Positions 43,701 through 49,700 of a DNA stretch of 64,000 nucleotides are shown in pieces. Source of the DNA: Abditibacterium sp. (lineage in GTDB: Bacteria > Armatimonadota > Abditibacteriia > Abditibacteriales > Abditibacteriaceae); contig CBDASK010000003.1 in the NCBI GenBank assembly GCA_965199495.1, forward strand, positions 2,208,001-2,272,000. Direction: 5' to 3'. The position numbers are program-made. Numbering within the stretch: the stretch's first letter is position 1; each line of letters begins with the position of its first letter.

Positions 43701-46700
43701 GTGCCCGCTTCGCACGGCGCGATTGTGCTGGGACTTTTGCCGCTCGCAACCGCCGTTGTCGGCGCACTGCGCGGAGGCGAACGGCCTTCGCCCGCGTTCT
43801 GGGCGGCGAGTATCGTCGGTAGCGTTCTGGTCGTCGCGTTTACGCTCGTAATGGGCGGTGGTTCGATTCAACGGGCGGATTTGGCGTTGCTTGGCACTGT
43901 GATTACCGGCGGCATCGGCTATGCCGAAGGCGGGCGATTGGCGCGCGAAATGAGCGGCGCGCGCGTTATCAGTTGGTCGCTGTTAATCGCCGTGCCATTT
44001 TTAATAATTCCCGTGGCCCTCGCGGTTCACCGGCACGGCGTGGCTGCATCGCCCGCCGCGTGGTTGGGATTCGCTTACATCAGTGCGGTGAGCGCGTTTG
44101 GCGGATTCTTCGCGTGGTATCGCGGTTTGGCGCTGGGCGGCATCGCGCGCGTGAGCCAGTTGCAATTGCTGCAACCGTTTCTGACGTTACTCGCTTCGGC
44201 GCTGTTGTTGGGCGAGCAAATCACCATCGTCGCCATCGTTTTCGCTCTGGCGATTGTGGCATGCGTGGCAATCGGACGCAAAGCCGCGATTGCCTATTAA
44301 AAAGATTTTTACCACAAAAACACAGAGGGCACAAGAAATTCAAAAATAGAACGAAGAACTTGCTTTGGTAAAAGATTGTTCTTCAGAATCTTTTGTGATT
44401 TCTGTGTTTTTGTGGTAAAAATCTTTCCCACTTGAATGGCTTCTAAATCTACGCCCGCGCGACCAAACCGGCAATCGTGACGAAATGGCAGACGCTGCCG
44501 CCGATGACGAAGATATGCCAAAGATCGTGCGCCGAAAATTTGCCCGGCACCAAATGCGGTTTGTCGAGCGCGAAAATCACCGTGCCAATTGAATAAACCG
44601 CGCCGCCCGCCAGCAGGAAAAACCAGCCCGCAGGGGACAGAGAATCGCGTAATGGCGATAACGCGACCACGACTAACCAGCCCATCACGACGTAAAGAGC
44701 CACGCGCAACCAATCGGGCATCGTTTTCCACAGCAAACTTCCGCTCACACCCAAAATGGCGAGCGTCCACACGATGCCCAGCAAAATCCAGCCGCGTTCG
44801 CCGCGCAGTGCCAAAAGACAAATCGGTGTGTAACTTCCGGCGATAAGCAGAAAAATCGCGCTGTGATCTAAGCGTTGCAACAACGCTTCGATGCGCGGCG
44901 TCGAACGCCACGAATGATAGGTCGCGCTCGCGGCGTAGAGCAGAATTAAAGTCGCGCCATAAATCGCGGCGGCGGTCGTGTTCCACGCGCGCCCATCGGC
45001 CAACCACAACAATGTGAGTAAAGCCACAACCGATAACAGTGCGCCCAGGCCGTGGGAGAGACCGCAAAACGGCTCTTTGATTTTTTGCAAAAGTTTCATG
45101 TGTCGCCAGTTTTTCGCCGCGACTCAAACGACGCGCGTGGCCAAATTCCGTCAATGTAGACGCCCTATTTTGTCCAAAAGTCGCGCGCGTTGCGATAATA
45201 AAGCATTCGATTCGCTGCTCAACTGATTAAAGAAAGCAACGCTTGCATCGCCTTCGATGCGGCTTCTTCGTCGGCGCAACGCAACGAGAGCGGACTACCA
45301 AGATAAGGCGAAATATGAACGATGGATAAACTTGGGTCTAACGAAAAGGACGAAGCGTTTGGCGTGATGCTATCTATTTCGGACGCCAAAATGCCAATAT
45401 CAGCGATGAATCGAATTTGGCAGACGAGGCCGCCCGGATAAACCGCGACGCGGAGAAACCAAATGTTGATCGAACGAAATTTGCCGGAGCAATCGAGCTC
45501 GATTTGCCGTCTTCCCGAACCTTGAATCTGCCGCACGATTTGCGCGCGTTCGTCGGCGCTCCACAGAATGGGTTTGGGAAAAGCGTCTCTGAAAATCGCC
45601 AGCAAAATCGAACAGAGTCCGAGAGTGCTGGTGATCCACAGGCTCACCGCGTGCCAGCGCATATAATACCACTGCGACTTTGTCACTTCGGTTTCGTGTC
45701 CATGATCTGAGACATAAAAATGCCTGTGCGTTCGGTGCCCATTAATCGCGTCACCGCCCAATGTTTCGTAGTGGAACCCATAAGCGATGAAATTAATCGG
45801 CGCGATGACGATGAATAAAAAGCAAAGAATTCCGGTGAGGTCTTTCATGATATTGAGCGCGCAAAATCCTGTGGCCAAAGAAAATTTTACTCCCATAACT
45901 TGACAGCCATTGTCGAATTCACTTATAATTCCATTTCGTCCGCGAACCCCGATCCATCTTTGTTCGCCGGAGGCCATTATGTTAGCGTTGCGCACCCTTT
46001 GCCCGATAAACCATCCGAGTTTTAACGATAAAACTCGCGGCGGTTCGCGCGCGCTCGGCCTTCGGAGCGCACGCCATATTTCCTCCTGTTCGCCCGTTTA
46101 GCGGCGAACCGATTTCCTCAAAGGGCGCGAAGGCTTTTATAGCTTTCGCGCCCTTTTTGTTTTTCAAGTTAAGCCCCCGGTGAATGGGACAATTCGCTAA
46201 ACCTAATGATTACTGGAAAAGTTTTGAAAGCTCGCGGCTGGAAAGAGGGCCGCACGATTGGGCTGGCCAAAAAAGCCGCTCATGCACTGGCCGAAATTGG
46301 TCAGGACGAAAATACGATTCTGGAGCGGCTCGACGCGGTTTTGGCCGACCCGGATAAATGGACGGGCGACCCGATTTTCTTCGAGGTCGCGTCCGAGATT
46401 CTGTCGCGCGAGCGCAATGACGCCTCGAAATGGGCCGACGCGCTGCGCGAAACCGCGTTGCCCTACGAAGTTTGGGGCGCCGACGGTATTGACGCCGCCG
46501 CCAACAAACAGATGGAAAACGCGTTGCGTTTGCCCGTGGCTGTTGCTGGCGCGCTGATGCCCGACGCGCACGTTGGTTACGGTTTGCCAATCGGCGGCGT
46601 GTTGGCCACGCAGGGCACGGTCATCCCGTATGCGATTGGGGTTGATATTGCTTGTCGTATGAAATTATCAATTTACGATGTTTCGCCCAATATTATAGGG

Positions 46701-49700
46701 CAACACAAAGCCAAATTTGAGAAATCGTTGGTCGAACAGACGCGTTTTGGCGCGGGTTGTAAGTTCGATGCACGCGAGCGCCGCGAACACGAAGTTTTGG
46801 ATGACGACGATTGGCGCGCCACAAGATTTCTGCACGGATTGCGCGCCAAGGCCATCGAGCAGTTGGGCACGTCGGGCGGCGGCAACCATTTCGTCGAATG
46901 GGGCGAGTTCACCTTGGACGAAGATTCGTCCGAGTGGGGCTTGAAGGCAGGCACGTATTTGTCGCTGCTCTCGCATTCGGGTTCGCGCGGCGTGGGTTTT
47001 AAAATCGCCAATGAATACTCACGTTTGGCGCGCGGTTTACATCCGAATTTGCCCGATGCAGTCAAGTATTTGGCGTGGCTCGACATGGACAGCGATGCCG
47101 GGCGCGAGTATTGGATCGGGATGGAATTGGCGGGCCGTTTCGCCAGCGCGTGCCACGAAGTGATTCATCGCGAAGTCGCCAAAGCGGTGGGTTTCAAGCA
47201 AGTCGCTTCGATTGAAAATCATCACAATTTCGCGTGGCGCGAGACGATGGCCGATGGCAGCGAAGCGATTGTGCATCGCAAGGGCGCGACTCCGGCGGGC
47301 GCGGGCGTGTTGGGAATTATTCCCGGCTCGATGGCCGATCCGGGTTATGTCGTGCGCGGCAAAGGCGTGATGTCGAGTTTGAACTCGGCCTCGCACGGCG
47401 CCGGGCGCGCCATGAGCCGCAAGGCCGCCAAAGATTCGATTACGTCGGGCCAGATGCGCAAGTATCTGGAATATCGCGGCGTGAAACTGCTGGGCGGCGG
47501 CTTGGACGAGGCACCGATGGCCTATAAAAATATCGAGGAGGTGATCGGCGCGCAACGCGATTTGGTGGATGTTCTGGGAAGTTTCGCGCCCAAAATCGTG
47601 ATGATGGCCAACGATTCGAGCGACGTTTAACGTTCTGTAGCCACCAAGAAGGACATAGGAGTTACGCAGTTGCCTTTGCTTGTCATTCTGAGCGCAGTGA
47701 GGCACGAACGCAGTCGAAGAATGAAGAATCCACCGGTTGCGACGAAATTTGACGTTCGTCGGCGAATTCACGGTCATGGATTCTTCGACTGCGTTCGTGC
47801 CTCACTGCGCTCAGAATGACAAGCAAAGGCAACTGCGTAACTCCTACGTCCTTCTTTGTCTTCTGGGTGTGTTCTCCGTGTCCTTGGTGGCTAATTTTTG
47901 CGCCAGCCGACGGTCGCTTGCACGCTGCTCCATTCGCCTTTGCCCGCCAAAATTGAGGTTTTCCACTGCGATTGCGGTTTGCCGCGTTCGTCGAGGGGAA
48001 AAGTATCGCGCGTCCAGAACCATTTCCAGTAGCGCGCGGGTTCGAGCGCGGCCCAACTGGCGCGCGGCCAAATCAGAAAATCGGTGGTATTGGTTTTCCA
48101 ACCGGCGCGCGTCATAGCGCCGACGTTGGGCAAATCGTCGGGCGTGGTGACGCCCACGCGCGAATTCACGATGTTGAGCGTGTTGCCGATGCCATTGTTG
48201 GATGCGCCGACATTGGGCGCCGATTTGCGGAAATACCAGACCGTCGGCCACTGGCGATCTTTGCCGTTTTTGCCGTCATTATTGAACCACAGCGCGCGTA
48301 TATCGCCGCACGTTTCGGCCTTGGCGGTTTCGACGGCATCGCGAAAAGCGTCGGGCGATTGCGCATACAAAATCGGCTCGGCGTTGTCGCCCGCGCGCTG
48401 GAAAATCATCGCGTAGTCGCCGCGCAGCGAGAAGAACGCGCCCAGCACCAAACCAAGCAGCCACGCCGGGCGACTCAACCGAATTTGGCTCAGCCAAACG
48501 CCGCCCAAAAGCGCGAGCGGCAGACAAATATGAACGATGAGCCACGGCACTTTTTCGTTGGCGACGGCATAAACCGTCCATGAACTAAAGCTCCACCACA
48601 ACAATAAATCGGTGAATTGGGTGCGGTTTTTGGCGGCGTAATAAACGCCGCCCGCCGCCGCGACCAAAATCGGCACTTCGTATAAAAGCGCCAAAACCAC
48701 ATAATAATCGTGGCGCCCCGGCAGACGCGGCGTGGCCTGTTGGCCGCCCCAGTAATCCCACATTTGCCTAATCGCCGTGAGCGCGCTTGTTGCACCGCCC
48801 GCCGCCGTGACTGTCGGAAACTGTTTGGTTTGCGCCCACTGCGCCAAAATTTGCGCGACGCCGCCAAACAGAAAAATGTAGAGCAACAAAGCCGTGAGCG
48901 CCACCCAAAAATAAGTCAGCCATTGCTCTTTTGAATTGGCGACTCGCAGTTCAATTGGCGCGATTTTCTTTTTCGCTTTCTTGCTGACTTCGCTTTCTTT
49001 CGGTTCGCGCCACGACATCAGCCACAGCCAGAAGACGCCACACGCCGCGACAGCGACGATTTGGAATATTTTGTGTTGGTGCGCCTGAATTGCCGGAACG
49101 AAGGTGTTGTCGCGCGGAAAGAGAATCGCGAAGGCGGTGACGACGACGAAACAGAGCGCGGGCGTCCAGCGTTCGATGAGAACGGGCAGACGGAGCCAAC
49201 CGCTAAAGCGCCACGCCAGCCAGAACGCCAGCAGCATGACGGCGATGAAAAAGAAGTTGGCTTTGGTCGCCAGAAATAAAGTCAAAAACGCCGCCAGTCC
49301 GACGCGCGCGTTGCGCCCGCTTTGCGAATCGGACGGGTGGCTCAGCGTCCACATAAAGCACAAAACCGCGCCCATCGTCAGAAATAAGACCAGCGAATCG
49401 TGCAGCAAATGGCGCGAGTAAGTGACAATCGAAGGCGAAATCGCGACGAGGGCCGCGCCCGCAATCGCCGCGCGATTGGAGACGAAACTGCGCATCGGAA
49501 ACAATATCAGCGCCAACAAGCCGATGCCCAAAATTGACGGGACGAGGCGCGCGGTGAAATCGAAATCGCCCGTCGTTTTGGTGAAAAGCCCGACCAACCC
49601 AAATAGGCCCGCGACCAAATGATAGAGCAACGGCCCATGATAAACCGGATCGTAATGGTAAGTGCCGAAACTCTGCGCGAAAAACGCGTGAATCGCTTCG

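Follow-up and report, generated by a model that had tools for sequence, protein, structure and literature searches.

A leader ORF and intrinsic terminator upstream of stand-alone rtcB genes in two bacterial phyla: a probable ribosome-dependent attenuator

Introduction

The closest described relative of the system reported here is armZ (PA5471) of Pseudomonas aeruginosa, which is followed by prfH (PA5470) and is induced by ribosome-targeting antibiotics through a proposed attenuation mechanism involving the leader peptide PA5471.1 (PMC12057347, PMC3516279). In the uORF of whiB7/wblC in Actinobacteria, efficient translation leads to formation of an intrinsic terminator and stalling to formation of an antiterminator (PMC10274678). 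RtcB itself is induced upon damage to the translation machinery from the rtcBA operon of E. coli and Salmonella (PMC12606134), and the Anabaena rtcB gene, which is co-regulated with a tRNA array, responds to translation stress independently of RtcR (PMC8421152, PMC10272220).

Here we describe a leader upstream of rtcB in Abditibacterium sp., found in a 64,000-nucleotide stretch of contig CBDASK010000003.1 (the window). Like armZ, this gene belongs to the RtcB family and is preceded by a constitutive promoter, a leader ORF and predicted termination signals (PMC12057347, PMC3516279), so the statement of the first-pass annotation that attenuation of rtcB had never been reported was mistaken. As described, however, the armZ leader has 13 codons and lies about 250 bp upstream, whereas the leaders studied here have 29–64 codons; ArmZ adjoins prfH and is known as the MexZ anti-repressor, whereas the rtcB genes studied here mostly stand alone and PrfH was not found. 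In mechanism the leader can be likened to the longer, mixed-sequence uORF of whiB7/wblC (PMC10274678), although that uORF acts on the gene of a transcription factor that feeds back positively and the present leader would act directly on that of a repair enzyme. Induction of RtcB by translation-machinery damage, which we propose here, would be shared with rtcBA of E. coli and Salmonella, but that operon requires the CARF-domain activator RtcR and sigma-54, and RtcR was not found here. Likewise, RtcR-independent induction by translation stress, again proposed here, is a feature of the Anabaena rtcB and trn operon, where control is exerted by TrcR, a DNA-binding repressor at promoter repeats, rather than by a leader ORF and terminator. 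Attenuators of the trp type follow a 1:2 / 2:3 / 3:4 hairpin logic and serve biosynthesis; the same logic is predicted for the genus of the window, but its leader has no run of a single amino acid and its target is RNA repair. In the literature searched, which did not extend to the ncRNA motif tables of PMC11109978 or to subscription papers, armZ was the one attenuator described for an RtcB-family gene, and the present leader did not appear. The leader family is new and sits on a different RtcB subtype from armZ, whereas the type of mechanism is already known.

Results

rtcB and its known regulators

The gene is the only rtcB match in its genome, and its product aligns with solved RtcB at the metal-binding and nucleophile (guanylated-His) motifs, which suggests by sequence that it is an RNA ligase. 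Assignment to the PrfH-coupled RtcB2 type (armZ/ykfJ) was rejected, as the TIGR03073 score of 131.7 bits falls short of the cut-off of 271.8; PrfH matches in the genome were likewise below cut-off. The first-pass annotation had placed rtcB outside RtcR control, and this is borne out more widely: RtcR was not found in any of the 27 family (Abditibacteriaceae) or 151 Ktedonobacterales genomes searched, with a positive E. coli control. Neither RtcA (RTC family) nor Ro60/TROVE was found in the window's genome, which is 95% complete, and no sigma-54 −24/−12 pattern was seen upstream of rtcB, although rpoN is present in the genome. An RtcR-controlled rtcBA operon was rejected on the lack of rtcR, rtcA and a sigma-54 promoter pattern.

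Anatomy of the leader

The features of the leader are collected in Table 1. The reported 40-codon ORF is present, with its ATG one base before the start at 45980 given in the first-pass annotation; the 21-nt gap between stop codon and GC stem and the 52 nt between terminator and rtcB were reproduced. The hairpin within the ORF has a loop, GGCCTTCG, complementary to the 5' arm of the terminator, and its 5' strand aligns with the antiterminator element of Ktedonobacterales described below (alignment A2). In the predicted antiterminator, 46057–46064 would pair with 46128–46135 and 46072–46075 with 46124–46127.

Table 1. Features of the rtcB leader in the window
Feature	Position	Strand	Basis or detail
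Sigma-70-type promoter, TTGACA-18-TATAAT	45900..45929	+	12/12 consensus
Shine-Dalgarno (SD) GGAGG of leader ORF	45969..45973	+	read from sequence
Leader ORF, 40 codons + stop	45979..46101	+	stop codon 46099–46101
Leader ORF 5' part, second candidate antiterminator in ribosome-free RNA	45981..46002	+	pairs terminator 5' arm
Arg20 codon, conserved Arg near predicted best stall site	46036..46038	+	
Hairpin within leader ORF, candidate anti-antiterminator	46047..46074	+	fold
Predicted antiterminator strand	46057..46075	+	folds with ribosome mask at codons 20–22
Small hairpin across leader stop codon	46088..46109	+	fold
Intrinsic terminator, 13-bp stem 46123–46153 + U-tract	46123..46164	+	−24.9 kcal
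rtcB, 474 aa, N-terminally extended subtype	46206..47630	+	Pfam PF01139, E 3.5e-79

Conservation in the family

The layout is kept across the family to a greater extent than first claimed, with an SD-led ORF and a terminator in 25 of the 27 genomes; of the two exceptions, one (G019) has a contig that stops after the terminator and the other (G015) lacks the layout. All 25 leaders have an SD-led ATG, and the promoter score is at least 9 in 24 and at least 10 in 23 of them. The first stop falls 15–50 nt before the stem in the leader frame of 25/25 leaders, against 0/25 and 6/25 in the other frames and 3.2 expected from shuffles. No promoter of 10/12 lies between terminator and rtcB in any of the 25 family leaders or of 26 from Ktedonobacterales. 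These leaders combine a promoter, a translatable ORF and an intrinsic terminator with no internal promoter, as expected of a ribosome-dependent transcription attenuator.

The peptide is 29–64 codons long and variable, with no sequence common to the genera, so that the earlier view of a conserved layout and a free peptide mostly stands; it fails for an Arg, encoded by CGG or CGC, that lies 4–5 codons ahead of a conserved Ala in 13/13 leaders of the genus. Arg is not in excess across the family (11.1% vs 11.2% out of frame). Sensing of a single amino acid was rejected, no residue being enriched in the family (the widest gap is that of Leu, with 11.7% in frame and 7.5% outside it). The hairpin at the stop codon is a weak feature, with a family mean of −7.2 vs −5.6 when shuffled and 18 of 25 below their own null.

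Background in the genome and beyond

The spacing of 19–36 nt between stop codon and stem, offered earlier as evidence, is ordinary, being shared by 167 of the genome's 369 gene-end terminators. Since 55/369 of these lie no more than 12 nt from a stop, tight coupling of transcription and translation is not assured. Some 20–70-codon ORF accompanies 41 of 86 leader-type terminators, but only three have one led by SD and ATG, and among all 1096 terminators rtcB alone combines an SD-led ORF with a promoter of at least 10. A shared regulon based on the terminator motif was rejected, as matches occurred in single copy at rtcB, the exceptions being a terminator at a gene end (L193), one match of loose fit (L186) and a leader that precedes an N-terminal remnant of rtcB (L155). 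Outside the family, 78 loci of the same RtcB subtype (Bacteroidota, Anaerolineae and others) yielded 11 with some terminator; an SD-led ORF was present only at L048, and at L043 a similar terminator is accompanied by an ORF without SD.

Homologous leaders in Ktedonobacterales

In Ktedonobacterales, which belong to another phylum, 26 of 30 loci have a homologous leader ahead of this RtcB subtype. They served as a held-out set, the pairing statistic having been fixed beforehand. The antiterminator stands out from shuffles at p ≤ 0.1 in 21 of 26 leaders (mean z −2.9), and when terminator arms were swapped between leaders the 3' half of the ORF preferred its own arm (p 5e-5), whereas the 5' half did not (p 0.47). 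The helix is 78% paired, vs 35–49% when slid, a value reached by 1/500 shuffles. By folding, the energy of the terminated minus the antiterminated state is −3.0 kcal at the best, early stall, so that the two folds nearly balance, vs −17.5 kcal with the ribosome at the stop. These models point clearly to an antiterminator within the ORF that excludes the terminator. RNAalifold recovered 4/13 pairs (energy −0.35) from an alignment whose middle is misaligned. Arg accounts for 16.7% of residues in the leader frame and for 10.7% outside it, and in one leader (L118) an Arg-to-Cys change leaves the pairing intact. In both phyla the leader remains with rtcB, although the genes around them differ. In one genome (G101) it stands before an operon of RLIG1, Rnl1 and rtcB, so that one cassette would drive three different RNA ligases.

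The candidate antiterminator in the window and its family

Compared with Ktedonobacterales, the family of the window has a weaker candidate antiterminator. It had been claimed that the 3' part of the leader pairs best with its own terminator arm, but swap tests on the 25 family leaders gave p 0.89 and 0.93; nor did the window pairing, said to be matched by 0/200 shuffles, hold up, since the 3' half gives −18.2 kcal and 104/200 shuffles are equally strong. Against shuffles the predicted window antiterminator does not stand out (z −1.1, 6/40), and only 9/25 family leaders reach p ≤ 0.1. Pairing of 45981..46002 with the 5' arm gives −21.2 kcal (6/200 shuffles as strong), in a register not common to most relatives. 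The motif CCTTC occurs in 9 of 11 family leaders with a GAAGG arm, in none of the other 14 and in 1/26 from Ktedonobacterales, a test picked post hoc, after the data had been seen, and based on few independent lineages. For the window and its family, motif co-occurrence thus argues for an antiterminator inside the ORF and the shuffle and swap tests argue against it.

Folds masked by a ribosome place the best stall of the window leader at P-site codons 21–22, where the terminator is still favoured by 8.8 kcal, vs 16.6 with the ribosome at the stop. In equilibrium folding of the whole leader, which says nothing on kinetics, the terminator forms every time.

Discussion

We consider it probable, at about 0.8, that the leader is a whiB7/armZ-like ribosome-dependent attenuator which induces the stand-alone RNA ligase gene rtcB under translation stress. 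The core of the first-pass proposal, that an attenuator with a leader ORF takes the place of RtcR, is supported by the antiterminator in a second phylum and by RtcR not having been found in the genomes searched; its pairing statistics for the window did not reproduce, and its spacing argument is weak. The anatomy, its conservation, the frame of the ORF, the complementarity in Ktedonobacterales and the negative search for RtcR are observations; from them we infer that the ORF is translated, that transcription either stops at the terminator or passes it, what signal induces the switch and which helix forms in the window. The strong housekeeping promoter would be active constantly. A ribosome reaching the leader stop would melt or cover the antiterminator strand, so that the terminator forms and rtcB is off, whereas one stalled ahead of that strand, by an antibiotic, a starved or cut tRNA or damaged rRNA, would leave it to pair with the 5' arm of the terminator, and RNA polymerase would read on into rtcB. 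In Ktedonobacterales any stall at least about 22 codons before the stop would suffice, as in whiB7. For the genus of the window, a further hairpin is predicted to hide the antiterminator strand, and for this reason a stall near codons 20–22 should be best, as in trp.

The leader might instead be nothing more than a small gene or an sRNA that ends at a terminator of its own, with constant leaky read-through setting a low level of rtcB. The genome-typical spacing, the dominance of the terminator in every equilibrium fold of the window and the failure of the family swap tests all agree with this; the variable length and sequence of the peptide, the specific complementarity of ORF and arm in Ktedonobacterales, confined to the 3' half, and the persistence of the leader beside rtcB in two phyla despite differing neighbours make it improbable. 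Slightly more improbable, in our estimate, is regulated antitermination, with a protein, tRNA fragment or ligand binding the leader RNA and the ORF secondary. It is indeed chiefly the RNA that is conserved, the pairing element falls in differing frames in some family members, and a weak window antiterminator could need a helper. Against this, the SD, ATG and open frame are retained in every family leader, a change in where the ribosome sits is enough by itself to shift the balance between the folds, and Rfam returned no riboswitch or T-box match in the leader, only three chance microRNA hits outside it.

A function mainly in trans of the peptide or the terminated leader RNA has been proposed for the Sinorhizobium trpL leader. 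The strong promoter and SD here imply an abundant product, and the Arg-x(3–4)-Ala pattern of the genus and the in-frame Arg excess in Ktedonobacterales could be read in this way, but there is no peptide common to the genera and no Arg excess in the family, and pairing survives the Arg-to-Cys change in L118; we regard it as the least probable of these explanations.

Beyond the attenuator itself, one may imagine a feedback loop free of transcription factors, in which the leader ribosome senses broken translation RNA: a cut tRNA or rRNA would cause the stall, the ligase would be made, and repair would close the terminator again. For the window's genus the cut tRNA may be a tRNA-Arg, which would decode the conserved Arg next to the predicted stall window. 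We think this picture of a portable sensor-enzyme cassette common to two phyla doubtful.

To our knowledge most bacteria with rtcB are without RtcR. To the known controls of rtcB, namely RtcR, TrcR and the armZ leader of the PrfH-coupled subtype, the present leader would add a fourth. This conserved RNA leader, which has no match in Rfam, occurs in two phyla ahead of a stand-alone RtcB subtype and comes with a predicted helix and stall window. Drugs or nucleases that open the leader would tell which damage this RtcB subtype serves.

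Anatomy and conservation of the rtcB leader

The leader of rtcB in the window has a defined anatomy of promoter, short ORF and terminator (see the table), is conserved across the family of 27 Abditibacteriaceae genomes and is under selection for its reading frame. The length of the ORF, its distance to the terminator, a terminator of about -25 kcal and the distance from there to rtcB had been described in a first-pass annotation and are borne out by the window sequence and its fold, except that the ORF start had been placed one nucleotide off. No Rfam family matches the window leader.

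Features of the rtcB locus in the window (window coordinates) and of a tRNA-array locus elsewhere in the same genome (contig C3)
Feature	Position	Strand	Description
Divergent ORF	45219-45848	minus	about 210 codons; no Pfam or NCBIfam match; missing at the same place in the close relative G011
Sigma-70 promoter	45900-45929		12/12 consensus
Shine-Dalgarno (SD) GGAGG	45969-45973		ahead of leader ORF
Leader ORF	45979-46101		40 codons
Terminator (stem)	46123-46153		13-bp stem, -24.9 kcal, U-tract; 21 nt past leader ORF
rtcB	46206-47630		52 nt beyond terminator
Inverted repeat	47640-47860		long, near-perfect, -167 kcal, directly after rtcB; 16-nt core found 33 times genome-wide; probable MITE or REP-like element
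Candidate Fe/Mn superoxide dismutase ORF (by reading)	C3:1550900-1551312		divergent from tRNA-array leader
Compact tRNA array	C3:1551508-1552003		outside the window; Gln-TTG, Asn-GTT, Leu-TAA, Leu-CAA

As claimed earlier, the layout is kept across the family: an SD-led ORF of 30–45 codons followed by a terminator starting GCGC was found in 25/27 genomes. In G019 the contig ends directly upstream of the terminator, and G015 is the family genome without the leader; its rtcB (L147, G015:C34) lies downstream of unrelated membrane-protein genes, with no such terminator within 4.3 kb. Because nearly all family leaders have a single SD-led ATG, the leader ORF was not chosen to fit. The first stop falls 15–50 nt ahead of the stem in 25/25 leaders in the leader frame, in 0/25 and 6/25 in the other frames and in 3.2/25 expected from shuffles, in a test whose 15–50 nt range was set after the distances had been seen and whose related leaders are not independent.

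An ORF of 20–70 codons accompanies 41 of the 86 leader-type terminators in the window's genome, and an SD-ATG-led one only 3. Among all 1096 terminators of this genome an SD-led ORF together with a promoter of 10 or more occurs at rtcB only, where the single copy of the terminator motif is also located. The stop-to-terminator spacing of 19–36 nt, previously offered as evidence, means little because 167/369 gene-end terminators of the genome share it. None of the 51 family and Ktedonobacterales leaders has a promoter of 10/12 between its terminator and the gene.

Ahead of the tRNA array lie a 31-codon ORF that lacks a clear SD and, 20 nt past its stop, a terminator of -32 kcal. This ORF contains TTA, two TTG, four Asn and two Gln codons, which are those read by the tRNAs of the array, and the leader recalls the joint regulation of rtcB and a tRNA array in Anabaena.

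The RtcB protein and its genomic context

By Pfam search the window RtcB is a PF01139 protein; it has kept the catalytic motifs known from solved RtcB and scores well under the cut-off of the PrfH-coupled family. Its genome has no other rtcB match. RtcB in Abditibacterium records is 68–70% identical, with the same leader in one record, and the same subtype is present in 27/27 family genomes. RtcR was found in none of these 27 genomes, in agreement with the proposal that rtcB lacks RtcR control, and in none of the 151 Ktedonobacterales genomes searched; no RtcA, PrfH or TROVE turned up in the window's own genome. In rtcB of G001, G003, G004, G006 and G025 an insertion at the catalytic Cys, around residue 150, gives open frames of 720–810 codons and is probably an intein. 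The G006 gene is additionally frame-shifted near the N-terminus, and that of G023 is split near residue 240–252.

Pairing between leader ORF and terminator in the family

The case for an antiterminator, an ORF strand able to pair with the terminator 5' arm, is equivocal in the window's family. Pairing in the window beyond shuffles and a preference of the leader 3' part for its own arm had both been reported, and neither was reproduced: the energy of pairing with the arm is -18.2 kcal for the ORF 3' half (104/200 shuffles equally strong) and -21.2 kcal for the 5' half (6/200). When arms were exchanged among the 25 family leaders, the p values were 0.89 (3' half), 0.03 (5' half) and 0.93 (last 72 nt). 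In the net sequestration test 9/25 family leaders reach p<=0.1, and the window gives 6/40. Evidence for an antiterminator comes from the motif CCTTC, complement of a GAAGG arm, which occurs in 9/11 leaders with that arm, 0/14 other family leaders and 1/26 Ktedonobacterales leaders, a comparison picked after inspecting the sequences; in the window's subgroup the motif is located in a hairpin loop within the ORF.

In ribosome-masked folds of the window leader, sequestration peaks with the P-site at codons 21–22 (-12.8) and is lowest at the stop (-4.2), and the terminator is ahead by 8.8 kcal at the best stall versus 16.6 at the stop. Since the terminator is still favoured at the best stall, read-through in the window could only be kinetic or partial. 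An Arg near the predicted stall window is kept in 13/13 genus leaders (three subgroups) and is as a rule absent from Ktedonobacterales; it is only a lead.

Homologous leaders in Ktedonobacterales

Among 78 non-family loci of the same RtcB subtype, an SD-led ORF with terminator was found at one, the Ktedonobacterales locus L048. In a tree that omits intein-bearing and split proteins, the RtcB of this locus branches as sister to the family clade (support 85). The subtype is present in 42/151 Ktedonobacterales genomes. With a looser SD rule and the ORF end required 10–60 nt before the stem, the best 30 loci comprise 26 with the layout, one cut short and three without a leader directly upstream, including G101 (L148, G101:C27), in which the leader stands ahead of an operon of RLIG1-like, Rnl1-type ligase and rtcB genes. 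The terminator motif occurs once per genome, at rtcB, and the genes flanking the leader vary. The terminator starts with the same GGCGCG as in the family, and within the ORF lies CCGYGCCTG, which is complementary to flank plus 5' arm. This element can be aligned, in the same Arg-Ala frame, with the 5' strand of the hairpin in the window.

With the sequestration statistic unchanged, 21/26 of these leaders reach p<=0.1 (mean z -2.9), and 17/22 once four near-duplicates are dropped; in the swap test, which had failed in the family, p is 5e-5 with the 3' half and 0.47 with the 5' half. The antiterminator helix is 78% paired versus 35–49% when slid, with 19 double-change cells, the structure being drawn from the same sequences and relatedness inflating counts of this kind; RNAalifold recovered only four of its pairs. 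Mean sequestration is -16 kcal for a ribosome placed 24 codons ahead of the stop versus -3.3 at the stop, and the terminated minus antiterminated energy comes to -3.0 for the best stall and to -17.5 for a ribosome at the stop. In these modelled folds, terminator and antiterminator are mutually exclusive helices.

At L155 (G155:C38) an intact leader with antiterminator motif stands before an N-terminal rtcB remnant of 131 codons, and seven loci (L133-L145 subgroup) have a gene for Fe/Mn superoxide dismutase that runs divergently from the leader. The non-family loci L043 and L051 have a promoter, a 27-codon ORF without SD and a terminator ahead of rtcB; that of L043 starts GGCGCGG, and its complement is held in the ORF.

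Relation to known systems

The rtcB leader is outside the RtcR, RtcB2-PrfH and Rfam leader families. The literature searched, ncRNA motif tables of one supplement excepted, holds no report of it, and the available portions of PMC4007540, PMC13159725 and PMC8297930 contain nothing on an rtcB leader. The broader assertion that rtcB attenuation is unreported fails: a 2025 review (PMC12057347) counts ArmZ (PA5471 of Pseudomonas aeruginosa) among the RtcB-like RNA ligases and places its gene under the control of the leader peptide PA5471.1 through proposed attenuation. This leader has 13 codons and lies about 250 bp upstream (2012 review, PMC3516279), ArmZ has been modelled on RtcB (PMC3575510), whiB7 follows the same logic with a longer ORF (PMC10274678), and translation stress induces rtcB via TrcR in Anabaena (PMC8421152, PMC10272220) and rtcBA via RtcR in E. 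coli (PMC12606134).

We put the probability that the rtcB leader is an attenuator at about 0.8, and as such it would work like those of whiB7 and armZ. Translation of the leader ORF in full would allow the terminator to form, and a ribosome stalled before the pairing strand would open rtcB. For the window this switch would be extended from Ktedonobacterales by homology, with the added hairpin giving a narrower predicted stall window that adjoins the conserved Arg.
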